In this document: piece by piece, positions 11,174 to 33,176 of the stretch | Numbering within the stretch: the stretch's first letter is position 1 | Layout: the number at the start of each line of letters is the position of its first letter | Source: Alphaproteobacteria bacterium | Lineage (GTDB): Bacteria > Pseudomonadota > Alphaproteobacteria > JAJTHO01 > CANGYM01 | Assembly (NCBI GenBank): GCA_044375675.1 | Contig: JBILMD010000001.1 | Span: 126,396 to 190,395 of the forward strand | Direction of reading: 5' to 3' | Length of the DNA stretch: 64,000 nucleotides | Translations under genes and position numbers: made by a program | Notes under the pieces: generated by a model | Database searches by the model: none | Seen by the model: only the letters and a program-made list of their open reading frames with translations | What the model was told of the DNA's origin: nothing

Positions 11174-12055
11174 TTAATTCAGGTTTGGGCTGCCTTTTTG
11201 GTCGCGAATATATTTGATGAATCCATATAAGTTTTCCGCATCTAGCCCATGCAACATTAAGCGAAACCCTGCTTCGAGCGTTGAAAATGGAACCATGGGG
11301 TGCTTGTTGTTCACGAGACCCATGATGAATTGCTTGTCCAACATCTTGGCGATATAGACAGCCATGGTTTCGTCCAACTGCAGAGAGTTGCTGGCACGTT
11401 CAAAGGCTTCGTTCGAAAGAAACACACCAAACAAGGGCGTATAAATTTCGATTGCGCTCTGTAGATCAAGAAAATTGTGCCATGTATCAGACAACGAGTC
11501 TATTTCCGAATCGAAATCATAAATCGCTGAAAAATCAATTTTATCAAGGGGAATAGGCTGGATAGATTTATTGTTCTTTTGCAAATAAGCACTGAGTTCT
11601 ATGATAAAATTATAAATGTTCAAATCGTGCTGAACAAACATGTTGTTTTTAAAGTCATCTATAATTCTCGGTTTTAAGGGATGGGATGTTAGCTGTCCCT
11701 CTGCAAGGTTATCATTCAAGAATCTAAGAATTTGGCTGCCTATATGAAAGTGGCGCATGATAAGATAATTTGCATCCTTGTTCACGAAATTTTTCATGCC
11801 CCATGCGATCAGGCAGTGTAATGTTTTGGGCGATGTTAATGCGTTGGGAATTAAAATACGCACTAGCCTGACTAAGGCGATAGACAAGCGTGCAAGTGGC
11901 CGAATGATCGGCAGAAGAAACGTGCGCGATCTTGTGCCGTTATTACGGAGCAGGGCTTCTTTTGCCGGTTGATCGAAAAAGGTGCTCTGATCCAAGGCCA
12001 AAGCCAACCAAGGATCGGGGTTGTTCAGGTCGTGAAGCTTGGCATCAAAAGACAT
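11174..12055 (-). CDS. Hypothetical protein of 293 aa, third gene of the KAS-III/HO-fold operon
   Basis: Long ORF, AT-richer than flanks. Its start overlaps the stop of the upstream gene (ATGA). No recognisable motif. Confidence 0.5.
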   Translation of the reverse strand: MSFDAKLHDLNNPDPWLALALDQSTFFDQPAKEALLRNNGTRSRTFLLPIIRPLARLSIALVRLVRILIPNALTSPKTLHCLIAWGMKNFVNKDANYLIMRHFHIGSQILRFLNDNLAEGQLTSHPLKPRIIDDFKNNMFVQHDLNIYNFIIELSAYLQKNNKSIQPIPLDKIDFSAIYDFDSEIDSLSDTWHNFLDLQSAIEIYTPLFGVFLSNEAFERASNSLQLDETMAVYIAKMLDKQFIMGLVNNKHPMVPFSTLEAGFRLMLHGLDAENLYGFIKYIRDQKGSPNLN

Positions 12056-12720
12056 TACGTGTTTCCCAACTCTTCCATTTGCAGCCTATACAGTCGAGCC
12101 GTGACTTTGGCGGTCTTGATAATATTTTTCCCCATATTCGGTATATCAAGAATACCTGATTGCAGCGTTTTGCTGAACTCTTCCATGTGCTCATCATCAT
12201 GCGCGGAATGATACGTAAGAAAAGCCACCTGTTTATCTTCAAGATTCAATTGCTCCTGAATACTTTTTCCCCACTGACCGGCTTTCTTCTGGCCCAGCCC
12301 TTCAATAATGAACATAGCACCTAACAGGCGAAAAGGATTTGGCTGGCTTGCATGCTGGTACATATAGGCATGTAGCGCCTCCGAACCTATGTTTTTTTCT
12401 GCGCCGCGAATTTCTTCAAGCGTGCCACCTAAAGAAATATAACTTTCTTCAAGCATGCGGTAATCTTTGTGTTCTGTAATCGCATGCTTTAAAAAAACCG
12501 AGCGTTGTTCGAGATATTCTTCATCAATACTGGAAGCGGCGCGAGCAATCCACCGCGAACCTTCTACAACCTGCTGACGGTGGTTGACCAGAAGCATTTT
12601 ATAATCCTCAAGCTGGAATTTCTTGCGGTTAATTTTATCAATCAAAGGGACCGTATCAAGGATTGTATCAAAATCAGTCCAGACCTTGAGCAGCCCGCGC
12701 ATTACTTCTTCACTTTTCAT
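12055..12720 (-). CDS. Heme-oxygenase-fold (TenA/PqqC/CADD-like) putative iron-containing redox enzyme
   Basis: About 220 aa with spaced E/H-rich helices (FLKHAITEHKDY, IIEGLGQKK, FLTYHSAHDDEHMEE), reminiscent of HO-like diiron enzymes and TenA. Family assignment is tentative. Confidence 0.5.
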   Translation of the reverse strand: MKSEEVMRGLLKVWTDFDTILDTVPLIDKINRKKFQLEDYKMLLVNHRQQVVEGSRWIARAASSIDEEYLEQRSVFLKHAITEHKDYRMLEESYISLGGTLEEIRGAEKNIGSEALHAYMYQHASQPNPFRLLGAMFIIEGLGQKKAGQWGKSIQEQLNLEDKQVAFLTYHSAHDDEHMEEFSKTLQSGILDIPNMGKNIIKTAKVTARLYRLQMEELGNT

Positions 12721-12734
12721 TACCTCACCTTTCG

Positions 12735-13859
12735 TTATACGACCTCTAGTAACATCAATCCGTTCAATCCTCGCCCGCTTTCTGGTACATGACAGAGAAT
12801 TTTCTCGCCTGATTTCAGCTTCCCGCTATAAAATAGCTCCTCAAGCATTATTAAGATAGAGGCCGTTCCTGTATTGCCCTTACTGTACAGGTTGCTGAAC
12901 CATTTTTCTTCATCTATCATTGCGCCGGCCTTTTTAAGCAACGCAATTGTTTCTTCACGCAGCGAGTGCGAGGAATAATGGCAGCATAAATGATCAATTT
13001 GGTCGAGCACAATTTTCTTTTGATCTATCAGATCTAAGTAATGAGAAATCCAGACAGGGATCATTCTTTTTAACAAATGAAAATCCTGCGCTAGGACAAA
13101 GGCACCTTCGGAAAAAGCCGCTGCGGGGCTGAGAAAACTGCTCCAAGGTTCAATCCTATCGTCAGTGCGGACACCGCCTGCTAGCATGCAGGTATCAAAT
13201 CTGTCGGCGTAAGAGCGTATGTCAATCCAGCATATTTTTAGAGATATATGGCGCGTGTTTGCCTTGCTGCCAAGCATCGCGGCCCCTGCACCATCAGACA
13301 AGGTAAACCGAAGAAAGTCTACTTCGTAAGGTAAATATCCAAGCTCTTTCACTTGTGCGGTATCTTCATAGAACCCCGGTCTGAAGTAGCGACTGGCGAA
13401 TTCGCTACCTGATACGGCGGCACAATCATGCTCGTTCGCTTTAATCTGTGTGTATACTGATTTTACAGCCATGAGAACACTGGCGCATACGCTTTGGAAG
13501 CTGGCGATTTCAATTGGGGGAAGCTTCAGATTCGCATGAACATGGGATGCCAAACCCGGCACCAGAACATCACCCAATGTTGCCGATGTGGCCAGATAAG
13601 TAATGTCATTTAGGTTAGCCTCTGATTTCCTCAGGGCTTCCTGTATGGCGATAGCAGCCATATCCGCGCTGCCGTATTGCTGAACTCCATTATCATCCAG
13701 CGCATAATAACGTGTTTTTATTTTATTTTGGCGCAAGGCGGTGCTACGGAAACGCGATGGCTTGCCGTGAATGCATCCCAGATAATTTTCCATTTGGCTA
13801 TTTGGTATGGGCTGGCCGGGCAGAAAAATGCCAAGACTGTTAATGAATACATCCCTCAT
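12735..13859 (-). CDS. 3-oxoacyl-ACP synthase III (FabH/KAS III)-like condensing enzyme
   Basis: FabH-like N-terminus, active-site Cys in SVCASVLMAV, His in HYSSHS, and Asn in GNTGTASI. Confidence 0.75.
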   Translation of the reverse strand: MRDVFINSLGIFLPGQPIPNSQMENYLGCIHGKPSRFRSTALRQNKIKTRYYALDDNGVQQYGSADMAAIAIQEALRKSEANLNDITYLATSATLGDVLVPGLASHVHANLKLPPIEIASFQSVCASVLMAVKSVYTQIKANEHDCAAVSGSEFASRYFRPGFYEDTAQVKELGYLPYEVDFLRFTLSDGAGAAMLGSKANTRHISLKICWIDIRSYADRFDTCMLAGGVRTDDRIEPWSSFLSPAAAFSEGAFVLAQDFHLLKRMIPVWISHYLDLIDQKKIVLDQIDHLCCHYSSHSLREETIALLKKAGAMIDEEKWFSNLYSKGNTGTASILIMLEELFYSGKLKSGEKILCHVPESGRGLNGLMLLEVV

Positions 13860-14010
13860 GAAAGCTCTTTTCGATTTTTTCGATTTTCAGAGAATCCGGC
13901 GATCAAATGTTACAAGCCTACTCAATTCTCAACTCTTTTTGAAGTGATTCCGTAAAGGTTAGAAACGTGGTTCCATAGAGGGGCTTGAAACTCTGTCGAA
14001 GGAGGCCTCT

Positions 14011-14637
14011 ATGGAACTGGAAAATCGTATCATCGCCATTTATCTGCGCATAGAAGAAATTTACAAAGACCTCACGGCCTTGCGCCCCAAACGCAAACGC
14101 GTCTTTAAAAAACACGCCAAACCCTGGCTGTACGGCATGAAACCCGCCGCCCCAGGCCACCTGATCCAAATCGACCATATGACTGTCAGAAAAAATGTCA
14201 TAACAATCAAACACTTCCAAATGTACGACCACGTCACCAAAACCATCCTCGCCGAGGTGTATAGCAACGCCACCAGCCGATCCGCAAAAAAATTTCTGCG
14301 TAAAATCAAAGAGGAACTCCCGTTTGCCATCGTGTCCATCCAGGTCGACGGCGGGTCCGAATTCATGGCCGAGTTCGAAGAAGACTGCCATGCCCTCGGC
14401 ATCGCTCTGTTCGTCCTGCCCCCCAAAAAACCCTAGTATAACGGGGGTGTCGAGCGCGGAAATCGCATCTTTAAAGAAGAATTCTACGCCAAAGCCGCCT
14501 ATGATTCCCTCGGACACTGCCGCGCCCTCCTCAAAACCGCCGTCCACAAATACAACACTTACCGCCCACATTATGCCTTGAAAGGATCCACACCCTCCGC
14601 GTATACAAAAACCATCCTCCTCAAGGACGCCGCTTGA
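14011..14637 (+). pseudogene. DDE (rve-type) transposase remnant: N-terminally truncated, with an in-frame amber stop at 14434-14436
   Basis: ...GHLIQIDHMTV...IQVDGGSEFMAEFEE...PKKP*YNGGVERGNRIFKEEFY...YRPHYAL. DDE integrase-core motifs split by TAG in the same frame. A GGAGG RBS lies upstream of the ATG at 14011. Confidence 0.7.
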
Positions 14638-14702: not shown

Positions 14703-14751
14703 CTGTTACCTGTTACCTGTAATCTGTTACCTGTTACCTGTTACCTGTATG
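14703..14751 (+). repeat. Heptanucleotide tandem array (CTGTTAC)x7, two units degenerate. The last unit contains the argB ATG.
   Basis: ctgttac ctgttac ctgtaat ctgttac ctgttac ctgttac ctgtATG read directly from the sequence. Confidence 0.9.
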
Positions 14752-15666
14752 AAAGAAACCCACCCCCTGCGCGATGTGAACCCTGTGGCGGCCGCCAAGG
14801 CCAGCACGCTGTCCGATGCTTTGCCCTATATGCGCCAGTATGCGGGGCGCACCGTGGTCATTAAATTTGGCGGCCATGCCATGGGGGAGGAAAGCCTGAC
14901 CGAGGCCTTTGCCCGTGACATTGTCCTGATGAAACAGGTGGGCATGAACCCCGTGGTGGTCCACGGCGGCGGTCCCCAGATTGGCGCTATGTTAGAGCGT
15001 TTGAAAATCAAAAGTGAATACATTGACGGCCTGCGTGTCACCGATGCCGCCACGGTGGAGATCGTGGAAATGGTGCTGTGCGGATCCATCAACAAAAGCA
15101 TCGTCAGCGCCATCAACAGGGCAGGGGGCCACGCCGTGGGCCTGTCCGGCAAGGACGGCCAGTTGATTGAGGCCCGCAAGCTGCGCCATCGCCCCACACA
15201 AAAAACGGATTCCAACATTGAACGCCTGCTGGACTTGGGCTTTGTGGGGGAACCGACCTTTGTCAACCCCCACGTTCTGGACGTTCTGGCTGAATCCGAC
15301 ATCATTCCCGTCATTGCGCCCATTGGGATGGACCCAAACGGCCAGACCTATAACATCAACGCCGACACCGCCGCCGGTGCCATTGCTGAGGCCATGGAGG
15401 CCACGCGCCTGCTGCTGCTGACCGATGTGGTGGGGGTTTTGGACAAAGACAAAACCTTGCTGCCCAAAATCACCCTGAGCCAAGCCCAAAAAATGATCGA
15501 AAACGGCACCATCACCGGCGGCATGATTCCCAAAATCCAAACCTGCCTGCACACCATATCCCGCGGTGTCGGCGCGGCCGTCATCCTAGATGGCCGCATT
15601 CCCCACGCCCTGCTGCTGGAAACCTTCACCTCAGAAGGGGCTGGGACGATTATTATGGAGGGGTAG
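14749..15666 (+). CDS. argB: Acetylglutamate kinase
   Basis: [25 protein letters not shown]...[10 protein letters not shown]... matches the ArgB amino-acid-kinase fold from memory. Confidence 0.95.
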
Positions 15667-24151: not shown

Positions 24152-25096
24152 ATGACCACCATTGCCTTTTATCATAACGCCCGCATTCCCTATACGCCCG
24201 ATGATTTGGGGCGCCCGACCATCAAGGGCATGGAATCCTCGGTCCTGCAATGGGCGGCGGCCCTGAGAAAGGCCGGCCATACCGTGCGCCTGCACCTGCC
24301 CCAGAGTGTCGCCCCCCTGCCCTATCCTGATGTGACGCTGTATCCCTTAACCGACACCACCCCCGCCGATGTGGCCGTGGCCCTGAATGAACCTGATGTG
24401 CTATGGCGCGTCCCCGCAAAGCGCAAATTTTTGTGGCTGCACAATGTTTTGCCGCTGGAAAAGGCCCTGCGCAAAGGCCGCCTGTGGCCCCTGATCCGCA
24501 TGCAGATGCCCGTGATTGTCAGCAGCCACTGGCACGCCCGAACCCTGTCCCCGCTGCTGCGCTGGCACGGGGTCCATGTGATGCCGCTGGGGATTGCCGA
24601 TGCCTTTACGCACCATCCCCGCACCGCAGCCCCCGCCCCGCACGTGGGGTATATCACCCATCCGTACCGCGGGTTGGATCCTTTTTTTGCCCTGTGGACC
24701 CAGCGGATTTTGCCCCACTGTCCAGCGGCGCAGCTGCACCTGTACGGCCCTAAAACCCTGAATCACCCCAGCGTGGTGCATCATGATGCGGTGGGGTGGG
24801 ATCAACTGCCCGATATTTTGGGCCGCCTGCGCTGTGTGGTGTTTCCGTGGGATAAACCGGAAACCTTTTGTCTGGCCGCCGGCGAAGCCCTGACCACCGG
24901 AACCCCCGTCATCAGCTATGCCGTGGGGGCCATCCCCGAGCATGCGGGCGTCACCGCCGTGACCACGCCGCAGGCCTTTGCCGACACCACCTTGGCCTAT
25001 CTGACAAACGATGCCCTGTGGATGACCACCCACACCGCCCTATCCCCCCTGCCCCGCCCCCGCTGGACCCATCATGATTTTTTTCATGGTGTGTGA
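24152..25096 (+). CDS. Glycosyltransferase, GT-B fold (group 1 / GT4-like)
   Basis: C-terminal E-x7-E-like nucleotide-sugar motif (LAAGEALTTGTPVISYAVGAIPE). Confidence 0.65.
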   Translation: MTTIAFYHNARIPYTPDDLGRPTIKGMESSVLQWAAALRKAGHTVRLHLPQSVAPLPYPDVTLYPLTDTTPADVAVALNEPDVLWRVPAKRKFLWLHNVLPLEKALRKGRLWPLIRMQMPVIVSSHWHARTLSPLLRWHGVHVMPLGIADAFTHHPRTAAPAPHVGYITHPYRGLDPFFALWTQRILPHCPAAQLHLYGPKTLNHPSVVHHDAVGWDQLPDILGRLRCVVFPWDKPETFCLAAGEALTTGTPVISYAVGAIPEHAGVTAVTTPQAFADTTLAYLTNDALWMTTHTALSPLPRPRWTHHDFFHGV

Positions 25097-25174
25097 AAAC
25101 TATCACATTTTTAAAGAAAAAAGGGGTATATTATACAATGATACAATCAACCGTAATGGACAACGGGTGGGGAT

Positions 25175-25819
25175 ATGGGTGGTGAAACACAGTTGGAAAC
25201 ATCTTACTGGCAGCTCACCGAGAAGATGAACAAAACACTCAATCGGTTTTTAAAACAACATCAGGATACTGACGACATAGATGATTGTACTTCGTCTATT
25301 TTGCATGCCTTTATTGCTAAAATATTATGTTCCAAAACTTTACTAAAAACCTACCCCCGCCAACCCATTGCACCGGATGAAATAGGCACATTAAGCTCAG
25401 AAGAACAAGCTGACCTACATGATACAGCAACGCACATCGCAACCCGCATAAAAGAACTTATTCTACAACAAGATATATGTCTTAAAAGTTTTCAATACAT
25501 AAGAGAGTCGGACGATACAAAATGCATAATAGAATATGATGAACCAGAACCTGAAACCAAAGACAAAATACAAAATCTTTTAGATAATAACGAGTTACGC
25601 GACCTCTGGACTCTTTTAACAAATTTACAACCTTATGTATTACACGCCCCTCCTAACCCCCATTTCCAAATAAATGAATCCTCTTTAATCTTATCTATTT
25701 TGATGTCATTAGATATTTTTGAAGGCATGACAAAAGATCAACCTCAAGAAACACAAACAACACATCCTGTACCGGAATTGGCAAAATTTTTAAAAACCTA
25801 CCACCAACGAACCGCCTAA
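25175..25819 (+). CDS. Hypothetical protein (AT-rich orphan, acidic)
   Basis: Long ORF, low GC. No recognisable motif. Confidence 0.35.
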   Translation: MGGETQLETSYWQLTEKMNKTLNRFLKQHQDTDDIDDCTSSILHAFIAKILCSKTLLKTYPRQPIAPDEIGTLSSEEQADLHDTATHIATRIKELILQQDICLKSFQYIRESDDTKCIIEYDEPEPETKDKIQNLLDNNELRDLWTLLTNLQPYVLHAPPNPHFQINESSLILSILMSLDIFEGMTKDQPQETQTTHPVPELAKFLKTYHQRTA

Positions 25820-26753: not shown

Positions 26754-27646
26754 TGGTTATGTCCCTATCGTACCGTTTGACCCTGATCAACACCGTGGAT
26801 GGCGTTTCCCCAAAGGACGCCCAGCGCGCGGCGACCTTTCTGAACACCGCCCCCCCCCACCCCTTTGGCGAAGGCCGCGCGGTGGATGTGCTTTACACCC
26901 CCGATGCCCCCACCGATGCCATGGCCTTGGCCACTGCTGTTCGGGATCTCTGGGGGGATCATCCCACGCCGTTTGATCTGTGTGTTCAAGATGCGGCGGC
27001 GCCCCGCCAAAAACGCCTGTTGCTGTCGGATATGGATGCCACCATTGTGGCCGAAGAATCGCTGGACGTTCTGGCCGATTATGCCGGCTGCGGCGAGGCC
27101 GTGGCCACCATCACCGCGCGGGCCATGCGGGGGGATCTGGATTTTCACGCCGCTCTGCGGGAACGTGTGGCTCTGCTGCGGGGGCAACCTGCCACGCTGA
27201 TTGATCGGGCTCTATCGGATATGACCCTGTCCGCGGGGGCCAGCGATTTGGTGACAACCATGCGGGGCTGGGGGGCCAAAACCATCCTGATTTCCGGCGG
27301 ATTCACCCCCTTTACCCAGCACGTGGCCGCTGTGGTGGGCTTTGATGACGCGGTGGGCAACACCTTGGGCCTTCATGATGGGCACTTCACGGGCGACGTT
27401 CTGGGCCCCATCGTGGATAAACACGTCAAACAGCAAACCCTGCTTGAGCAGGCGAGTGCCCTTAACCTCTCCCCCGCCGATACCTTGGCCGTGGGGGATG
27501 GGGCCAACGATCTGCTGATGCTGCAGGCCGCCGGCCTCGGCGTCGCCTATCGCGGCAAGCCCCTGCTGAAACAATCCATGCCCACGTGGGTGGACATCAG
27601 CGATCTAACCGCACTGCTGTATATGCAGGGCTGGGGCAACAAATAA
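26750..27646 (+). CDS. serB: Phosphoserine phosphatase (HAD family)
   Basis: HAD motifs LLLSDMDATIV, ILISGGFTP and AVGDGANDLLM. Confidence 0.85.
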   Translation: MMVMSLSYRLTLINTVDGVSPKDAQRAATFLNTAPPHPFGEGRAVDVLYTPDAPTDAMALATAVRDLWGDHPTPFDLCVQDAAAPRQKRLLLSDMDATIVAEESLDVLADYAGCGEAVATITARAMRGDLDFHAALRERVALLRGQPATLIDRALSDMTLSAGASDLVTTMRGWGAKTILISGGFTPFTQHVAAVVGFDDAVGNTLGLHDGHFTGDVLGPIVDKHVKQQTLLEQASALNLSPADTLAVGDGANDLLMLQAAGLGVAYRGKPLLKQSMPTWVDISDLTALLYMQGWGNK

Positions 27647-27657
27647 ACCCCGCATCA

Positions 27658-27727
27658 TTTTTTTTCCCAAAACACAAAAAAATGTGACAAATGGCACGGC
27701 ACGGCACGGCACGGCATAATGGGAGGG
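27658..27727 (+). promoter_or_regulatory. Repeat cassette copy 1: T-run + CCCAAAACACAAAAAAATGTGACAAATG + (GGCAC)4 + GGCATAATGGG
   Basis: Read directly. Contains a TGTGAC -35-like or CRP-half-site-like element and a CATAAT -10-like element separated by the pentamer microsatellite. Confidence 0.5.
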
Positions 27728-27781
27728 TAAACTCAACAAAAAAGTAAACCTTTTTGTTGTCCACACCTGAGGCCCAAACAA

Positions 27782-28096
27782 ATGGCTGTCTACATCGTAA
27801 CGGGAGAAATCCCTTCAAACGAACCAACGATCACCCCAGAAAGGATAATTTGTGATAGTAATGTCACTCCTCTCTTAATGCTTATAAAAGAAGAGTTTTG
27901 TAAGATTCCCCCATCCGCAGAACAAAGGCTTCTGTGTCTTTGTTTGCCATATAAATCAACCCTACCAAAGTACACACATTGGTACACAACCATTAATGTG
28001 TGCCAAAAAAGTGAGATGAGGATAGTTTGTCCAAGTCCCACCTTTGGCCTTCAGAGCAGGACTTCAAAATCCTGTCCAGAAATCTGTTTAATATAG
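27782..28096 (+). CDS. Small Cys-rich hypothetical protein (104 aa) downstream of cassette copy 1
   Basis: ORF follows the cassette and a 5'-UTR hairpin (27733-27758). AT-rich. No recognisable motif. Confidence 0.3.
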   Translation: MAVYIVTGEIPSNEPTITPERIICDSNVTPLLMLIKEEFCKIPPSAEQRLLCLCLPYKSTLPKYTHWYTTINVCQKSEMRIVCPSPTFGLQSRTSKSCPEICLI

Positions 28097-28199
28097 CAAA
28101 AACGCTTCACGATAATGATGATGGTAGCGATCCATACAGGATGGATCGCCATAAGAAGTTGATAAAGCTTCCTATTATTTTCGGTGAGTGATGAGTAGA

Positions 28200-28223
28200 G
28201 AGAGGCCCCCCACGGGGCCTCTC
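28200..28223. terminator. Bidirectional hairpin GAGAGGCCCC-CCAC-GGGGCCTCTC between convergent genes
   Basis: 10-bp perfect stem. The same CACGGGRCCTCTCC module recurs at 31384 and 32522. Confidence 0.4.
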
Positions 28224-28239
28224 CCCAACCCCTCCCCCC

Positions 28240-28683
28240 CTACGCCGCCGTAGACTTCTTCCCCAAAACCGCTCTGTCGATAATCTCCTCCAGCGCTATT
28301 GAGGAATCGCATTTGCGCAAAATCCCCCCAAAGGATAACACGCCGGAAACCTTGCCCCCCCGCATCACCACCAAACGGCTGACATCGTGGCGATGCATGA
28401 CATCGGCGGCCTTTTGCAGGGACTCTGTCTCTTCAACGCTGCAAACCTTGGGGGTCATGCATTCCTTAACAGTCACATCGGATGGTTTTCGATTGTCCAC
28501 AACACCCCGCAAAACAATATCGCGGTCTGTTAAAATGCCCAGAAGATGGTCTGTGGTACCCACGGGCAACATCCCACAATCGATTCTTTTCATGACCTTG
28601 GCGGCCTCGGCCAAGCTGGCCTCTGGACTGATAAAAACAGGTTGATCCACCATCACGGATTTTATGGTTGTTTTGTGCATCAT
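28240..28683 (-). CDS. CBS-pair domain protein
   Basis: Two CBS motifs (GILTDRDIVLRGV, VSGVLSFGGILRK). Confidence 0.7.
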   Translation of the reverse strand: MMHKTTIKSVMVDQPVFISPEASLAEAAKVMKRIDCGMLPVGTTDHLLGILTDRDIVLRGVVDNRKPSDVTVKECMTPKVCSVEETESLQKAADVMHRHDVSRLVVMRGGKVSGVLSFGGILRKCDSSIALEEIIDRAVLGKKSTAA

Positions 28684-28904
28684 GCTGATCTCCTTTGAAT
28701 GAGAATAAAGTTATATTTTACAACACACCCCAACCGTGCTACGTTTTCTGTATAAAAAATTTGATTTTCATCAAATCCATAAAAATATTTTTTGATAGAA
28801 TGATGGATATACTATAGTTATGTTTTGACTATGGTTTTTGGCACCCAACCAAAATGACCTGACACGCGCTTTCTATGAATCCTAAAAAAACCTAGAGTAT
28901 CGCC

Positions 28905-29642
28905 ATGTCCATTCCCCATGATTTCCTGAAAACCCTTCCGTTGTTTGCTGATTTTACAGGGCAAGAGGTCGCGCTGTTAGAGACAAAATGTCGCTTGCGA
29001 ACCTATGAAGAAAAACAAATCCTTTTTACCCAAGGGGATTCTATCACGTCCCTTTATGTCATGTGTCAGGGGACCCTGCAAATTTTTCGCGATACCCAAA
29101 CGGGGCACGAGGTCACCACAGACATCCTGATTGCGGGGGATCTTTTGGGGGCGGACGATATGCTAAATGCCGTGGAATCCCATACATCCAGCGCCAAAGC
29201 CGTGGATAAAACCATTCTGATTGACATTCCGGCACCGTGGGTCAGGCAGAGTTTAAAAAATTTCAATGGCTTGGGCGAACACCTTTTGGAATATGTCTCC
29301 AAACGCCTGCACCAGGCCCAAACGGAAATGGAACAACGCATCACCATGACTGCCCCCCAATTGATTGCCTGTTATTTGCAGCGGCTTTGCTTTTTGTATG
29401 GCTTTGATCCTGGGGGGTTTGATTTGCCCTATAAAAAAACCCTCATTGCCTCGCGATTGGGGATGGCCCTAGAAACCTTTTCCAGGGCCCTGGAAAAACT
29501 TTCTGAACATGGCATCATCGTTTCAGGCCATCATGTTTCCATCCATTCCCATGAAAAGGCTGAAAAATTTTCATGCTCAGAGTGTTCTGCAAACGACATT
29601 TGTGAAAACCATCACGCGCTGAGAAAAAAAAGCAGCCTTTGA
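28905..29642 (+). CDS. Crp/Fnr-family transcriptional regulator with a C-terminal Cys cluster
   Basis: N-terminal cNMP-binding-like domain, HTH TLIASRLGMALETFSRALEKL, and a C-terminal CSECSANDIC. Confidence 0.8.
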   Translation: MSIPHDFLKTLPLFADFTGQEVALLETKCRLRTYEEKQILFTQGDSITSLYVMCQGTLQIFRDTQTGHEVTTDILIAGDLLGADDMLNAVESHTSSAKAVDKTILIDIPAPWVRQSLKNFNGLGEHLLEYVSKRLHQAQTEMEQRITMTAPQLIACYLQRLCFLYGFDPGGFDLPYKKTLIASRLGMALETFSRALEKLSEHGIIVSGHHVSIHSHEKAEKFSCSECSANDICENHHALRKKSSL

Positions 29643-29768
29643 TGCACGTCAAATCTTTTCCAAAGCAGCCATGATTTAAACAAGCCATGCGGCTCTACCC
29701 AAGCAGACCAAAAACCGCTTGGGTCGGGTTGTGTTTGTTTCCCTGCAAAAAAGAAAGGACCTTTTGTT

Positions 29769-30443
29769 ATGACATCCGTTTTTTTTCCTCACTTGCGTGC
29801 CAGTGCCCCTTGGTGGGATTCCTATGTAACCATGCAACAGACGTGGAACGATTTAACACGCCAGGCTTTTTCTATGGTCCCCTCCCCTTTGGGATGGACA
29901 GATGAGGCCGATGTTTTTCGTGCCACACAACGGGCGGCAGAGCGCTTGCTCAGCGATGCCTTTAACACTACACAATCGTCCTTGCCTTGGATCCAAAAGG
30001 GACAGCTGATGCCCTCGCTTGACATCACAGAAACAGACAAAGCCTTTGCTTTGCGTGTAGAGCTGCCTGGCATTGCCACAGATGATGTGGATGTGTCCAC
30101 AAAGAATGGATCCCTGATTGTGCGGGGGGAAAAGAAAGCCGAGCAAACACAGGACAACGCATCCTGTCTGCGCCGCGAATGCACCTATGGGTCTTTTGAG
30201 CGCGTTGTGGCCCTGCCCAAAGAGGCAGACCTGAACAAAGCCGAAGCCACCTTCAAAAACAACGTTCTCACCATCCAAATTCCCAAAACGACCAAGGCCG
30301 CAGAAACCGCTGTGAAAATCCCTGTACAGCAAGAAAAGGGGTCCCCTTCGACACCTGTGGGCATCAAAACCGAAGGCACACACAGCTTGGGCCAACACAC
30401 ACAGGGCGCGGGTCAGTCGGCCCCCGCCAAAAAGATCGCGTAA
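29769..30443 (+). CDS. Hsp20/alpha-crystallin small heat-shock protein. Start uncertain: 29769, 29832 and an internal Met are all possible.
   Basis: Alpha-crystallin domain PSLDITETDKAFALRVELPGI...GSLIVRGEKK...GSFERVVALP...ATFKNNVLTIQIPK. Confidence 0.8.
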   Translation: MTSVFFPHLRASAPWWDSYVTMQQTWNDLTRQAFSMVPSPLGWTDEADVFRATQRAAERLLSDAFNTTQSSLPWIQKGQLMPSLDITETDKAFALRVELPGIATDDVDVSTKNGSLIVRGEKKAEQTQDNASCLRRECTYGSFERVVALPKEADLNKAEATFKNNVLTIQIPKTTKAAETAVKIPVQQEKGSPSTPVGIKTEGTHSLGQHTQGAGQSAPAKKIA

Positions 30444-30474: not shown

Positions 30475-30987
30475 ATGAATAAGCTCCACCAGGAAACGCG
30501 CGTTGTGGTCGCGGACGCTGTCCGCGCCCGCTTTTTCCGCGTATCCCCCCCCGAATTTCGTTTCGAAGAGTTCCATTCCGACATGGCCCAGCATGTTCCG
30601 CAGTCGGCGCACAGCACCCTGACCGAAGATTCTGAAGATCTGGTGTCGCTTCAGGGGCGGACAACATCGGCCTCGCGTGGGGATATGGGGCGCAGCCATG
30701 AATCGGCGTCCCCAACGCGGCATGTCATCGAATCGCGCAGCACGGACCAGGACTTGGACCGCACAGCCTTTGCCCAGCGGATCGTGAATCATTTGGAACA
30801 ACAGTTTCGCAATCATCGCTTTGATCGTCTGGTGCTGGTCATGCCCAGCCGCATGTTGGGGGAGGTCCGCCGGTATCTCCCAAAACCCCTGCAATCTATC
30901 CTGACCCACGAACTGGATCACGAATGGACCCCCCTGCCCACCAGCGATATCCAAGATCGCCTCAGGGACACCTTGGGCCACCTTTAA
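30475..30987 (+). CDS. Host-attachment-protein family (PF10116-like) protein
   Basis: N-terminal VVVADAVRARFF and C-terminal FDRLVLVMPSRMLGEVRRYLPKPLQ match my memory of this alphaproteobacterial family. A 250-aa ORF on the opposite strand is rejected. Confidence 0.6.
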   Translation: MNKLHQETRVVVADAVRARFFRVSPPEFRFEEFHSDMAQHVPQSAHSTLTEDSEDLVSLQGRTTSASRGDMGRSHESASPTRHVIESRSTDQDLDRTAFAQRIVNHLEQQFRNHRFDRLVLVMPSRMLGEVRRYLPKPLQSILTHELDHEWTPLPTSDIQDRLRDTLGHL

Positions 30988-30995
30988 AAAAACAG

Positions 30996-31073
30996 TTTTT
31001 TTTCCAAAAACACAAAAAAATGTGACAAATGGCACGGCACGGCACGGCACGGCACGGCACGGCATAATGGGGG
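30996..31073 (+). promoter_or_regulatory. Repeat cassette copy 2 with (GGCAC)6
   Basis: Same cassette as copy 1. The pentamer occupies 31031-31060. Confidence 0.5.
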
Positions 31074-31107
31074 CTCTTTCACAAAGTCCAACAAGGACTT
31101 TTTTCAC

Positions 31108-31362
31108 ATGGATCAAGAAGCAATTCTTGCCTTACTGCGAGAAAAAATCACCTCAACCCTAGAAAACATTCACAGGGATGGACGGGTGATTATTTTTTAC
31201 AGGACCCCAAAAATGGAGTGGTCAGCAAACACTGTATTTACCCAACGGTTTTTACAAAACCAAGCTCAGCTTATGGCCTCCCATATACGGGAAGGTCAGA
31301 CGCTGACCGTGGAATACTCTCACGAGGGTTTTTTTCCTGAGATCACACTTACGGTTTCCTGA
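31108..31362 (+). CDS. Small hypothetical protein (84 aa) downstream of cassette copy 2
   Basis: ORF starts 7 nt after the 5'-UTR hairpin AAAGTCC-aacaa-GGACTTT (31083-31101). Followed by a hairpin at 31371-31394. Confidence 0.35.
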   Translation: MDQEAILALLREKITSTLENIHRDGRVIIFYRTPKMEWSANTVFTQRFLQNQAQLMASHIREGQTLTVEYSHEGFFPEITLTVS

Positions 31363-31414
31363 ACAGCAAGGAGAGGTCTCCCACGGGACCTCTCCCCCGC
31401 CCATGCCTGTTTCC

Positions 31415-31693
31415 CTATGATTTCACAACAGGTGTAAAATCGGACCATTGTTCAATGCGAAAGGCCCGAATGTCCCGCACGGATTTTTGAAACCATTCCC
31501 GCGAGCGCAGCCCCTGAATAGCCATAAACAAAATCGCCATGTTTTCATTTTCTGTGACGTACAGACTGCCTTGAACACGGTGAAAGCCATGCTCGCCCAA
31601 AACGGCCCCAATTTCTGTATAGGCCTGCGATACCCCTTTGGGATGATATTTTTCCGCATCCGCAACAACCAAATCAAAGGCAACGGCGTACAT
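31415..31693 (-). CDS. vapD: VapD-family (Cas2-like) endoribonuclease
   Basis: MYAVAFDL...QGSLYV...WFQKSVRDIRAFRIEQWSDFT closely matches my memory of H. influenzae VapD (MYAIAFDL...QGSVYV...WFKKSVRDIRAFKV). Confidence 0.8.
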   Translation of the reverse strand: MYAVAFDLVVADAEKYHPKGVSQAYTEIGAVLGEHGFHRVQGSLYVTENENMAILFMAIQGLRSREWFQKSVRDIRAFRIEQWSDFTPVVKS

Positions 31694-31695
31694 GA

Positions 31696-31986
31696 CTAAG
31701 GTGCCTCTGGATCGTCATTCAAATGGGTCCAGCGGTATTCTGTTTTTTCCCCCGTTTCCACCACCGTGATTTCCACCATCCAATCATCATCCCCCCATGG
31801 GCGCACAACAGGACCCACCTGATACTTGGGACCAAACGGCCCAAAGCTTTTGATTTTACCCGTGGGCACAACAGGGACAGCATGGATCATGGGGGATAAA
31901 AACCTCTTGAAAACAGCATCATCATCCCACAACAGATGGGTTTTTGTCAAGGAATCCATCAACAGGGAACCCCCACCCCGCCCCAT
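31696..31986 (-). CDS. Hypothetical VapD partner (about 96 aa). Possible antitoxin or VapX analogue.
   Basis: Its stop lies 2 nt before the vapD start. Start taken at ATG 31986. The ORF-track N-terminal extension is just translation of the GGCAC repeat. Confidence 0.45.
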   Translation of the reverse strand: MGRGGGSLLMDSLTKTHLLWDDDAVFKRFLSPMIHAVPVVPTGKIKSFGPFGPKYQVGPVVRPWGDDDWMVEITVVETGEKTEYRWTHLNDDPEAP

Positions 31987-31996
31987 GACACAAAAA

Positions 31997-32078
31997 TTTT
32001 TTTCCCAAAACACAAAAAAATGTGACAAATGGCACGGCACGGCACGGCACGGCACGGCACGGCACGGCATAATGGGGG
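31997..32078 (+). promoter_or_regulatory. Repeat cassette copy 3 with (GGCAC)7
   Basis: Same cassette. The pentamer occupies 32031-32065. Lies in the divergent region between the vapD-partner gene and a small plus-strand ORF. Confidence 0.5.
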
Positions 32079-32112
32079 CTGTTTCATAAAGTCCCAAGGA
32101 CTTTTTCAGCCA

Positions 32113-32358
32113 ATGGCTACCTCAAAAGAGTACATCCTCGGTCAGCTTCAGACACTTTGTCCTGATGCCGGTCGGGGTCAGGAGTTCTCCCTTTATACAA
32201 CCATAGGACTAGGATCTTCCGGACCTCGAAGGGTTTCTTCCTGTCTGAGCTACCTGGCCTCTTGCGCCTATAATGACCAGAATCAAGCGGCGAGCTCAGA
32301 AGCCAAAGTTCGGGATATTAGACGTGAAGGAGATAACATACTCATAACAATTCTCTGA
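32113..32358 (+). CDS. Small hypothetical protein (81 aa) downstream of cassette copy 3
   Basis: ATG at 32113, preceded by the 5'-UTR hairpin AAAGTCC-caa-GGACTTT (32088-32104). Three hairpins follow the stop. Confidence 0.35.
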   Translation: MATSKEYILGQLQTLCPDAGRGQEFSLYTTIGLGSSGPRRVSSCLSYLASCAYNDQNQAASSEAKVRDIRREGDNILITIL

Positions 32359-32460: not shown

Positions 32461-32486
32461 GGGGGCCGTTGGCCCCCCTTTTTTTT
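32461..32486 (+). terminator. Intrinsic terminator GGGGGCC-GTT-GGCCCCC + T8
   Basis: Perfect 7-bp GC stem, 3-nt loop and a T8 run. Third of three consecutive hairpins after ORF 32113-32358. Confidence 0.55.
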
Positions 32487-32527
32487 CCCAAAACACAAAA
32501 AAATGTGACAAATGGCACGGCACGGGG
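32479..32527 (+). repeat. Repeat cassette copy 4: truncated, (GGCAC)2, no CATAAT. Fused to the GGGGCCTCTCC module.
   Basis: T8 + CCCAAAACACAAAAAAATGTGACAAATGGCACGGCACGGGGCCTCTCC. Confidence 0.6.
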
Positions 32528-32537
32528 CCTCTCCTTC

Positions 32538-32572
32538 CCTGTCACCTGTCACCCGTCACCTGTCACCTGTCC
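32538..32572 (+). repeat. Heptanucleotide array (CCTGTCA/CTGTCAC)x5, imperfect, abutting the rplY stop
   Basis: cctgtca cctgtca cccgtca cctgtca cctgtcc. One base different from the argB array unit CTGTTAC. Confidence 0.85.
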
Positions 32573-32576
32573 CCCC

Positions 32577-33176
32577 TCACTCCCCCGCTTCTTCCGCAGT
32601 GCCGCTCTTCGGTGCGACGATGGTGGCCAAGGTAAAGTCACGGTCAGTGATGGTCAACGTCACGCCCTCTGGCAGGGTCAGGATGCTGGATTTGATGGCA
32701 TCCCCGATTTTGGCATTCAGCAGATCAATTTCAAAGTGCGATGGGATTTTGCTGGCGTAACACAGAACCTCCACCGTGTGGCGCACGACGTTCAGGACAC
32801 CGCCGGCCTTTAGCCCGCGGCATTTGTCGGTGTTGGTTAAATGCAGGGGCACGGAAACCTTGATTTTGGTTTTGTCCGTCACGCGCATGAAATCCACGTG
32901 GATGGGTTGGTCTGTGACGCGGTTAAACTGAACGGCCTTGGGCAGGGCGCGGATGGGGCGGCCCTGATCGGGGGTCAATTCATACACAGTGGCGTAAAAG
33001 GATTCGTTGTGCAATCCGGCCATCAAATCCCGAATATCCAAAGAAAAGGTGACATTGTCATCCCCACCCCCATAAACAACACCCGGAACGCGGCCGGTGG
33101 TGCGCAAACGGTACATGGCATTTTTGCCCGTTTCGGTGCGGGTGGTGACGGGAATGGTGCGGGCGGTGGAACTCAT
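32577..33176 (-). CDS. rplY: 50S ribosomal protein L25 / general stress protein Ctc
   Basis: L25/Ctc N-domain ([11 protein letters not shown]...LHLTN) with a long C-terminal Ctc-type extension. Confidence 0.9.

Follow-up and report, generated by a model that had tools for sequence, protein, structure and literature searches.

A candidate redox-responsive FNR-like regulator and portable promoter-like GGCAC-repeat cassettes, probably separate systems, in one island of a freshwater alphaproteobacterium

In the recognition helix of CRP an Arg reads the G of TGTGA, and in that of the FNR type a Ser reads the T in TTGAT. E. coli-type FNR holds a [4Fe-4S] cluster by the N-terminal cysteines C16, C20, C23 and C29 together with C122. 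To our knowledge, within the Crp/Fnr superfamily a C-terminal Fe-S sensor has been characterised only in Bacillus Fnr. Promoters of Neisseria and Haemophilus carry repeats (TA repeats of hifA/B, homopolymers of porA and opc, TAAA of nadA) in which slippage alters the spacing of promoter elements. We know of repeat-driven switching being documented almost exclusively in host-adapted pathogens.

The [4Fe-4S] cluster of Bacillus Fnr is held by a C-terminal C-x2-C-x4-C and an aspartate, Asp141 (PMC3520743). In the vlhA genes of Mycoplasma gallisepticum a variable (GAA)n lies in a highly conserved 5' region, and the repeat number is thought to gate transcription (PMC6258824).

The DNA analysed here is a stretch of 64 kb from an uncultured freshwater alphaproteobacterium, referred to as the window. 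A hypervariable island between serB and ctc is the site of both a Crp/Fnr-family regulator module and small cassettes with a GGCAC repeat. All sequences compared were metagenomes or MAGs. A first-pass annotation had proposed that the regulator binds the cassettes, which would make the island a self-contained regulon. Judging from the sequences, we consider it the better-founded view, held with some reserve, that the island contains two separate things, a regulator module with FNR boxes and slippage-tuned portable promoter cassettes that are not targets of the regulator.

The regulator module and its FNR boxes

Apart from the cassettes, the island has the following genes and sites.

28240-28683, minus strand: gene of a CBS-pair protein (CBS, E 5e-23), divergent from the regulator gene
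28761-28774, unstranded: perfect FNR box TTGATTTTCATCAA in the divergent promoter of the CBS and regulator genes, kept in L021-23, L028 and L033-34
28905-29642, plus strand: gene of the Crp/Fnr-family regulator, 245 aa, with the helix LETFSRAL (residues 189-196) and conserved Cys 156, 162, 224, 227 and 233
29639-29652, unstranded: second FNR box TTGATGCACGTCAA, core TTGA-N6-TCAA, one mismatch, overlapping the regulator stop codon and kept in orthologous loci
29769-30443, plus strand: Hsp20/alpha-crystallin gene (domain match)
30475-30987, plus strand: Host_attach / baeRF family 12 gene (domain match)
31415-31962, minus strand: VapD-like gene (31415-31693) and DUF5397 gene (31696-31962), a passenger pair in the island
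32538-32580, plus strand: (CCTGTCA)n heptamer array 3' of the scar cassette, abutting the ctc stop codon and strain-variable

The product of 28905-29642 has the two parts of a Crp/Fnr protein, an N-terminal beta-barrel of the cNMP-binding type (PF00027, E 2.7e-13) and a C-terminal Crp-type HTH (HTH_Crp_2, PF13545, E 1.2e-9) in Pfam. A family profile run against the six-frame translation matched no other ORF, which confirmed the first-pass annotation in that this is the only Crp/Fnr-family gene of the window and lies inside the island. The top NCBIfam matches were FtrB and Fnr, each under its cut-off, and none of the curated NCBIfam models reached its cut-off. The closest solved relative was DNR (E 3.5e-46), with ETFSR identical in the aligned helix (PETFSR in DNR). 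An AlphaFold2 model of the regulator (pLDDT 87.9) gave TM-scores of 0.80-0.86 against holo-FNR and also matched CRP and GlxR structures. The helix LETFSRAL shows the E--SR pattern of the FNR/FixK/DNR class; E190, T191, F192, S193 and R194 each reach at least 90% conservation among 59 aligned homologues (E190, S193 and R194 to this degree or invariant). The R-E--R pattern of CRP is absent from the helix, where Leu precedes the Glu and Ser takes the position of CRP Gly184. By sequence and model the protein looks like an FNR/DNR-like dimeric transcription factor of the oxygen- or redox-sensing type.

TTGAT-N4-ATCAA boxes, as bound by this class, are present at the putative target promoters including that of the regulator itself. 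Only three TTGA-N6-TCAA cores occur in the 64 kb, and two of the three flank the regulator gene. Both boxes are retained in orthologues at 80-89% identity. Given the -10-like TAGAAT at 28796-28801, the first box would be centred at about -41 for the regulator gene. The second precedes hsp20 and the host-attachment gene, with 117 nt between it and the start of hsp20. The loci of five homologues (38-51% identity, five other lineages) had 18 boxes with at most one mismatch in 45 kb, nearly all of them intergenic, with three in a row upstream of the regulator gene in L038, and these five loci were devoid of cassettes. Neighbouring genes in homologue loci encode CBS, Host_attach, Usp and PhaC proteins, P-type ATPase, N-ATPase and Ack/Pta. 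In Bradyrhizobium the same gene classes are microoxia-induced or FixK2-dependent (PMC6515984).

Most likely, the regulator controls neighbouring stress genes through classic FNR boxes. It would bind TTGAT-N4-ATCAA, with the box at 28761 serving the regulator gene and the divergent CBS gene and the box at 29639 serving hsp20 and the host-attachment gene; both boxes and the genes served would form a small low-oxygen/stress module. The regulon would then be reassigned: the partners of the regulator would be the CBS, Hsp20 and host-attachment genes of a conserved low-oxygen/stress module rather than the cassettes.

Cysteines of the regulator as a candidate sensor

The C-terminus of the regulator, FSCSECSANDICENHH, contains three cysteines spaced C-x2-C-x5-C. 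C224, C227 and C233 show at least 90% conservation in the 59 aligned homologues, as do C156 and C162, which sit in the helix before the HTH. Thus the description of an atypical regulator with a C-terminal Cys motif holds. The N-terminal Cys cluster of enterobacterial-type FNR is absent from the translation, the first 60 residues of which contain C29 and C54 only. The C-terminal motif is plausibly a metal or redox sensor, as had been suggested in place of an N-terminal cluster, and Bacillus Fnr provides a precedent (PMC3520743). By analogy with that protein we infer that the cysteines of the regulator may hold an O2- or redox-labile Fe-S cluster or act as a thiol switch.

In the literature library searched, no alphaproteobacterial Fnr with cysteines at its C-terminus was described. 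The regulator may represent a new alphaproteobacterial subfamily of FNR-like proteins with a conserved C-terminal Cys motif, and the sensor position that it would have in common with Bacillus Fnr may reflect independent or shared evolution.

The GGCAC cassettes and their repeat number

Four cassettes of the window have TGTGACAAAT(GGCAC)n in common, at 27683, 31021, 32021 and 32504, with 4, 6, 7 and 2 GGCAC units. Their features are as follows.

27658-27725, plus strand: cassette 1, promoter module directly after the serB stop codon; T8, CCCAAAACAC, A7, TGTGACAAAT (27683-27692), (GGCAC)4 (27693-27712), GG, CATAAT (27715-27720)
27782-28096, plus strand: cassette 1, ORF of 104 aa with no family match; leader atypical
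28200-28223, plus strand: cassette 1, 3' end hairpin GAGAGGCCCC-CCAC-GGGGCCTCTC
30996-31073, plus strand: cassette 2, promoter module; T8, A-tract, TGTGACAAAT (31021-31030), (GGCAC)6, CATAAT (31063-31068)
31083-31101, plus strand: cassette 2, leader hairpin AAAGTCC-N5-GGACTTT with a 7-bp stem; SD-like AAGGA 8-10 nt before the ATG
31108-31362, plus strand: cassette 2, ORF of 84 aa; lineage-restricted family, predicted alpha-beta-beta-alpha-beta-beta fold
31370-31395, plus strand: cassette 2, 3' end hairpin GGAGAGGTC-N8-GACCTCTCC
31997-32078, plus strand: cassette 3, promoter module; T7, A-tract, TGTGACAAAT (32021-32030), (GGCAC)7, CATAAT (32068-32073)
32113-32358, plus strand: cassette 3, ORF of 81 aa
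32461-32534, plus strand: cassette 4, 'empty' or scar; terminator hairpin (32461-32477), T8, A-tract, TGTGACAAAT (32504-32513), (GGCAC)2

AATGTGACAAATGGCAC occurs exactly four times in the window, always on the plus strand (27681, 31019, 32019 and 32502), with 0.41 occurrences expected, and GGCACGGCAC 15 times with 0.28 expected. The units of the (GGCAC)4-7 arrays between TGTGACAAAT and CATAAT are 100% identical, and the arrays stand 37-43 nt or more ahead of an ATG. The motif CACGGGnCCTCTCC is confined to the island. In the scar cassette, which has neither CATAAT nor an ORF, the repeat and the 3' half of the end hairpin (GGGGCCTCTCC, 32524-32534) are fused at CACGG. With their GGCAC repeat of variable length, the cassettes have the look of portable promoter-and-leader modules. 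In order, each would comprise the T-tract of a terminator, an A-tract, TGTGACAAAT, (GGCAC)n, CATAAT as the -10-like element, a start region rich in G and a short leader hairpin bearing the SD, followed by a different small ORF each time and closed by a GGAGAGG...CCTCTCC hairpin. As a structure the leader hairpin was ordinary, with z-scores of 0 to -0.9. Searches with Rfam covariance models gave no hit in the window at the gathering threshold and, in the island, none even at E<=1. The word GTGACAG, considered as a protein-binding site common to cassettes and heptamer arrays, was dropped (6 occurrences against 3.9 expected, not significant).

The collections yielded 28 distinct complete cassette copies, in which n ranged from 2 to 9 and was most often 5 (9/28 copies). 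In every complete copy CATAAT or CATAGT lies 37-43 nt upstream of an ATG with AAGGA or GGAG in front of it; the scans required TGTGACAAATGGCACGGCAC, the conservation of which was thus partly imposed by the search. The cassette ORFs had no match in Pfam, and hhalign showed no similarity between their families. The family of the 84-aa ORF comprised only 8 clusters, all in this lineage, and its AlphaFold2 model (pLDDT 72.7) had no fold match in the PDB (all E-values > 0.09).

Cassettes are also present in the serB-ctc island of L005, which lacks the regulator, and singly elsewhere on the chromosome, after ligA or near uvrC, ruvA and hisB. This speaks against a self-contained regulon, even though islands without the regulator could have a copy of it elsewhere in the genome. 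That the regulator of the island binds TGTGA-N6-GCACG in the cassettes is in our view very improbable. It is true that regulator gene and cassettes occur together in the window and in L021, L028, L033 and L003/L008, that the left half-site TGTGA is perfect and that the site would be centred at -41.5 at n=5. Yet the helix L-E-T-F-S-R is devoid of the G-reading Arg of CRP and has the Ser that reads the T of TTGAT, in six lineages the regulator gene is bordered by FNR boxes, with no such box in or near any cassette, cassettes are missing from the homologue loci, and cassettes exist apart from the regulator module. The complete TGTGA-N6-GCACG has two mismatches to TGTGA-N6-TCACA, and 24 sites of this quality were found in the window against 23.5 expected. 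Chance could account for the resemblance to a CRP site, but by no means for the cassette as a whole.

The cassettes are mosaic: one and the same upstream flank occurs with different leaders and ORFs, and the other way round. In our preferred reading as portable promoter cassettes, the conserved module would also provide the homology for the exchange, loss or gain of cassettes. The mosaicism would likewise suit a module that, as integron attC does, serves above all for recombination in cassette exchange and has an incidental repeat; the scar, in which the repeat joins the loop of the end hairpin at CACGG, and the arrays of small ORFs in one orientation would agree with it as well. We hold this to be improbable: the module read as sequence has no attC-like imperfect palindrome and no GTTRRRY core, the scar always has n=2 and looks like one old event, and ordinary homologous recombination over ~75 bp would suffice. 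Furthermore, a domain scan that covered the longer ORFs (about 145 aa or more) in 0-46 kb of the window detected no recombinase. Plasmid, phage and viral collections gave no match, and an origin as a mobile element was rejected.

Repeat number varies where the downstream gene does not. Upstream of a 100% identical 84-aa ORF from different assemblies n was 6, 4 or 3, and in the family of the 81-aa ORF it was 7 or 5. The cassettes show two marks of a repeat-driven phase-variable promoter, a perfect short tandem repeat in the 5' regulatory region and a copy-number polymorphism at the same locus between near-identical strains. Because n differs upstream of an identical ORF, the comparison suggests tuning by slipped strands. 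The unimodal distribution of n could, on the other hand, reflect neutral repeat dynamics rather than selection. Under slippage tuning, slipped-strand mispairing would alter the number of 5-bp repeats, each unit would shift the upstream element by half a helical turn relative to the -10, and transcription would be tuned or switched by this shift.

The type of promoter was examined by the spacing to CATAAT. At 16-18 bp from it no acceptable -35 was found except ATGGCA at n=4. With GTGACA as -35 of a sigma-70 promoter the spacer is 5n+5 and never 16-18, and n=4 alone gives ATGGCA-18-CATAAT. For sigma-54, TGGCAC matches the -24 element perfectly, but in every register the GC that follows is one base short of GG-N10-GC, and this promoter type was rejected. 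EcfG-type and RpoH-type promoters had no convincing second element on either strand.

If transcription starts 7 nt after CATAAT, the centre of TGTGA-N6-GCACG lies at -(16.5+5n), which is -41.5 for n=5. A Crp/Fnr-family activator might act at the n=5 site, conceivably the regulator itself with relaxed specificity. Because n=5 puts the site at -41.5, a different activator of the CRP type (R-E--R), encoded elsewhere, has to be weighed. It would bind the GTG-N8-CAC core of TGTGACAAATGGCAC, and (GGCAC)n would set the distance to the -10, the promoter being ON at n=5 (-41.5, class II), perhaps at n=9 (-61.5, class I), and otherwise OFF. The formula for the centre fits this idea, as do the commonest repeat number of 5, the lack of a -35 element, which is typical of class II promoters, and the A/T tracts immediately 5' of the site, to which the alpha-CTD would bind. 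At 25092 a perfect CRP palindrome with class II-like geometry hints that such a factor exists. Nevertheless we regard it as rather unlikely. The right half-site is poor (GCACG, in some copies ACACG), no gene of the CRP type is present in the window, and the mode at 5 can arise neutrally. Sites with at most one mismatch to the CRP consensus numbered 2 in the window against 1.7 expected; a CRP regulon in the window was rejected on this count.

The repeat might instead be coding, like CTCTT of Neisseria opa. The ATG inside CAAATGGCAC would be the start codon, and n would set the frame into the downstream ORF. The 5-nt unit is no multiple of 3, the TAA inside CATAAT closes the frame when n is divisible by 3, and in cassette 3 (n=7) the frame from 32029 enters the 81-aa ORF in frame. 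But only 3/28 cassettes have an in-frame fusion and in 19/28 a stop precedes the main ORF, leader lengths shift by 1-2 nt through changes in T-runs regardless of frame, the main ORFs have an ATG of their own with AAGGA or GGAG 7-10 nt upstream, and no promoter-like -10 precedes the ATG in CAAATGGCAC. A translational switch therefore has very little probability.

Taken together, we tentatively put forward, well short of calling it probable, that the (GGCAC)n modules are undescribed contingency loci of free-living freshwater Alphaproteobacteria. They would be portable promoter-gene cassettes switched by the repeat, in which a CRP-type site is moved with each 5-bp step and is ON at -41.5 or -61.5, and would be shuffled by recombination inside the promoter module. 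If this were true, strains would have specific sets of stochastically expressed small proteins without assigned function. Repeat switching in free-living plankton, if shown, would widen the range of organisms in which stochastic switching matters.

Relation to known systems

With FNR of E. coli or A. fischeri, FixK2 of B. diazoefficiens and DNR of P. aeruginosa the regulator has in common the two-domain fold, the E--SR helix and TTGAT-N4-ATCAA boxes at its own and neighbouring promoters. It differs from FNR by the missing N-terminal Cys cluster; further differences are the C-terminal extension with C-x2-C-x5-C and the conserved C156 and C162. A haem-type pocket is a feature of DNR, and the relation of the regulator to DNR is a likeness of sequence, ETFSR included. 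Like Fnr of B. subtilis and B. cereus, it has sensor cysteines, in its case candidate ones, in a C-terminal extension, three in each protein but with the spacing C-x2-C-x4-C in Bacillus Fnr. Unlike Bacillus Fnr, it is alphaproteobacterial and in sequence closest to DNR-like proteins. Its neighbours (CBS, Hsp20, host attachment, Usp, PhaC) resemble the microoxic FixK2 regulon of B. diazoefficiens (PMC6515984).

The cassettes resemble class II CRP/FNR-dependent promoters in the TGTGA half-site, the absence of a -35, the A/T-rich upstream region and the centre at -41.5 for n=5, but the right half-site matches 3/5 positions and the likeness does not exceed chance. Integron arrays likewise have small, unrelated ORFs that all face one way, a repeated separator element and strain-variable content. 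In contrast to integrons, no attC-like structure was seen in the module and no intI among the longer ORFs scanned in 0-46 kb, each cassette has a promoter-like module of its own, and the arrays lie between housekeeping genes. The promoters of Neisseria and Haemophilus likewise have a variable repeat in or just upstream of the core promoter; in the cassettes, however, it is a pentamer, no -35-like hexamer has a 17-bp spacer at any n, and the same module precedes many unrelated genes. The vlhA genes, like the cassettes, are a multigene family with a conserved 5' region and a short repeat ~40 nt upstream of the start, the number of which differs between orthologues or strains. They encode surface lipoproteins, whereas the cassettes encode small proteins that matched no family and have no evident signal peptide. 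The cassettes differ from vlhA in the 5-bp unit, half a helical turn, and in the alphaproteobacterial freshwater host, and they appear to set a portable promoter, together with a pentamer of variable copy number, ahead of many different small genes of an uncultured bacterium.

Cassette sites and their likeness to CRP sites

AATGTGACAAATGGCAC occurs four times in the window (0.41 expected), always on the + strand (27681, 31019, 32019 and 32502), and each copy is directly followed by perfect GGCAC units (n = 4, 6, 7 and 2). The first-pass annotation had described the cassette sequence, the single Crp/Fnr-family ORF and its C-terminal motif correctly. With respect to a CRP site, TGTGA-N6-GCACG has two mismatches; 24 sites of this quality were found in the window against 23.5 expected, i.e. 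chance level. The cassette itself is non-random, yet its resemblance to a CRP site is not beyond chance.

CRP palindrome counts in the window were at chance level as well. The stop codon of a glycosyltransferase ORF is the site of a perfect palindrome, TGTGAAAACTATCACA (25092-25107); a low-GC ORF without family match (25175-25819) begins 83 nt further downstream. Given TATTAT (25129-25134), the palindrome would be centred at about -41.5. A near-copy with 14 of 16 positions identical (29601-29616) lies within the regulator gene and codes for C-E-N-H-H. Because this copy is not conserved in the orthologue of the related locus L003, it is probably a codon coincidence.

The regulator and its predicted targets

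The regulator (ORF 28905-29642) contains cNMP_binding and HTH_Crp_2 domains, and a six-frame translation searched with a profile built from its family yielded no further member in the window. Its closest solved relative by sequence was P. aeruginosa DNR (E 3.5e-46), which shares the ETFSR motif in the aligned helix. The AlphaFold2 model (pLDDT 87.9) gave TM-scores of 0.80-0.86 on superposition with holo-FNR. The approximately 80 homologues all belong to uncultured Alphaproteobacteria or Rhodospirillales; when 59 were aligned, the recognition helix residues E190, T191, F192, S193 and R194 proved at least 90% conserved.

According to established work on CRP/FNR specificity, an E--SR helix recognises TTGAT-N4-ATCAA, and CRP reads the G of TGTGA through an Arg preceding the Glu. 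The corresponding position of the regulator is Leu. Only three TTGA-N6-TCAA cores exist in the window, two of which flank the regulator gene:

28761-28774, perfect FNR box TTGATTTTCATCAA, divergent CBS/regulator promoter region
29639-29652, FNR box TTGATGCACGTCAA, upstream of hsp20 and a host-attachment gene

The centre of the first box would be near -41, given TAGAAT at 28796-28801. Both boxes are retained in orthologues of 80-89% identity (L021-23, L028, L033-34). Five homologue loci of 38-51% identity, from which cassettes are absent, contained 18 FNR boxes in 45 kb, nearly all in intergenic promoter regions, with one between every regulator gene and its divergent neighbour. At locus L038 three consecutive boxes lie upstream of the regulator gene. 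The neighbours in homologue loci are CBS, Host_attach, Usp, PhaC, P-type ATPase, N-ATPase and ack/pta genes, classes that are microoxia-induced in Bradyrhizobium, several via FixK2 (PMC6515984). Judged by sequence, FNR boxes TTGAT-N4-ATCAA are most likely the target of the regulator. A second CBS-pair gene (1116-1631) adjoins lpdA-like and SDR genes and has no FNR box nearby.

No FNR box was found within or beside any cassette. In the related locus L005, whose serB and ctc are 97-99% identical, the island measures 2 kb and holds three cassettes but lacks the regulator module, and related MAGs carry lone cassettes after ligA or close to uvrC, ruvA or hisB. Thus the proposed binding of the regulator to the cassettes is not supported by its Leu-E--SR helix, by the flanking FNR boxes or by the cassettes that occur without it. 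The island as a self-contained regulon was not borne out either; the boxes flanking the regulator gene and the neighbouring gene classes point to the CBS-regulator-hsp20-host attachment module as the self-contained unit, with predicted wiring by FNR boxes.

The regulator ends in FSCSECSANDICENHH. Conserved to at least 90% in the 59 homologues, C224, C227 and C233 make up C-x2-C-S-x4-C, usually followed by x2-H; C156 and C162 in the helix preceding the HTH reach this level too. An N-terminal Cys cluster is lacking in the regulator. In Bacillus Fnr a C-terminal extension with C-x2-C-x4-C and an Asp ligate a [4Fe-4S] cluster (PMC3520743). Because this C-terminal Cys sensor offers a precedent, the suggestion that the C-terminus senses a metal or redox state appears reasonable. 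The Cys architecture is unusual though not without precedent, and the regulator represents a new variant, at subfamily level, of a known kind.

Cassette layout and recombination

In scans of public genomes and metagenomes the cassette module was restricted to a few MAGs and contigs of freshwater Alphaproteobacteria; it was not found in plasmid, phage and viral collections. The layout was constant across 33 distinct copies:

T7-9 tract, often doubling as the U-tract of the terminator upstream
short C/A-rich stretch, then A7 tract
TGTGACAAAT, then (GGCAC)n
GGCATAAT or GGCATAGT, then GGGGG
one of several leaders; hairpin AAAGTCC..GGACTTT with AAGGA common
ATG 37-43 nt downstream of the -10-like hexamer
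ORF of 80-127 aa, differing between cassettes
3' hairpin GGAGAGG..CACG..CCTCTCC, often present, only in these islands

The end-hairpin motif CACGGGnCCTCTCC occurs in the window three times, in the island only and always on the + strand (28200-28223, 31370-31395, 32524-32534), and nine related loci also have it at the 3' ends of cassettes. Cassette proteins had neither Pfam nor fold matches nor detectable similarity between families, and there was no Rfam match. A recombinase was not found among the longer ORFs scanned in 0-46 kb of the window; the neighbours are housekeeping genes. VapD-like and DUF5397 genes lie within the island (31415-31962), and the corresponding position in a related strain is taken by a Zeta_toxin/AAA_33 gene (L021, 3900-4499); the island therefore gathers toxin-antitoxin-like passengers.

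Among 28 complete copies n was 2 (two copies), 3 (five), 4 (five), 5 (nine), 6 (three), 7 (one), 8 (two) and 9 (one). Four assemblies have n = 6, one has n = 4 and a further one n = 3 upstream of the ORF for an identical 84-aa protein, which indicates that the array changes faster than its surroundings. At L008 (7377-7440) (GGCAC)2 is followed by (GGTAC)7, an expansion of a variant unit, and a degenerate array, GACAC-GGCAG-GGCAC (L021, 3212), may be a 'locked' state.

Among strains, one and the same upstream flank (serB end, host-attachment end or DUF5397 side) is combined with differing leaders and ORFs. Thus the cassettes appear to recombine at the conserved module. In the fourth, scar cassette, a hybrid, CACGG marks the fusion of the module's 5' half (n = 2) with the end hairpin's 3' half; neither a -10 nor an ORF is present, and four other strains carry the same scar. 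This cassette is followed by a variable heptamer array, (CCTGTCA/CTGTCAC)n (32538-32580), which abuts the ctc stop codon and differs in copy number and CTGTAAC/CTGTCAC mix among strains (L005, L009, L010, L016).

L003 (about 2020-2050) and L021 (3168-3200) have a complete terminator hairpin, gcgggggacaacagcccccgcatca plus T8, of which the serB-side flank, ccccgcatca plus T8 (27646-27665), represents the 3' half. This cassette boundary seems to bear a further recombination scar. A short repeat also precedes an acetylglutamate-kinase-like ORF (14749-15666), the second such repeat in the 5' region of a housekeeping gene: the heptamer array (CTGTTAC)x6.6 (14703-14748) leaves a single base before the ATG, and its unit is similar to the CTGTCAC heptamer beside the scar cassette. 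Between rplJ and the argB-like gene, a low-GC block (11174-14571; 0.42-0.46) carries DUF6999, Haem_oxygenase_2-like and KAS-III-like ORFs and could represent a small accessory gene cluster for biosynthesis.

Possible function of the cassettes

CATAAT is the sole good -10 candidate in the cassette, and no -35 was found 16-18 bp from it except ATGGCA at n = 4. The spacer from GTGACA to CATAAT is 5n+5, so the array is not a simple spacer switch. Every 5-bp unit, half a helical turn, would displace TGTGACAAAT and the A/T-tract block with respect to the -10. With a presumed transcription start 7 nt past CATAAT, TGTGA-N6-GCACG would be centred at -(16.5+5n), hence at -41.5 when n = 5, the modal value, and at -61.5 when n = 9. 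Activators of class II and class I classically occupy these positions, which keeps alive the possibility that a CRP-type factor, distinct from the island's FNR-type protein, reads the site. Sigma-54, ECF and RpoH promoter readings were rejected because of wrong spacing.

Alternatively, the ATG in CAAATGG might begin translation through the repeats. At 32029-32358 its frame does pass through (GGCAC)7 and continues into the 81-aa ORF, but only 3 of 28 cassettes fit, and both the SD-like motifs and the leader lengths, which are indifferent to frame, speak against this reading. With n divisible by 3 the frame ends at the TAA inside CATAAT.

The closest described analogue of the cassettes is the vlhA family of M. 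gallisepticum, in which a (GAA)n repeat of variable length, some 40 nt ahead of the start, lies between conserved flanks and differs in unit number among orthologues (PMC6258824). We favor the view that the cassettes are a predicted new variant of repeat-containing promoters, which merits follow-up.
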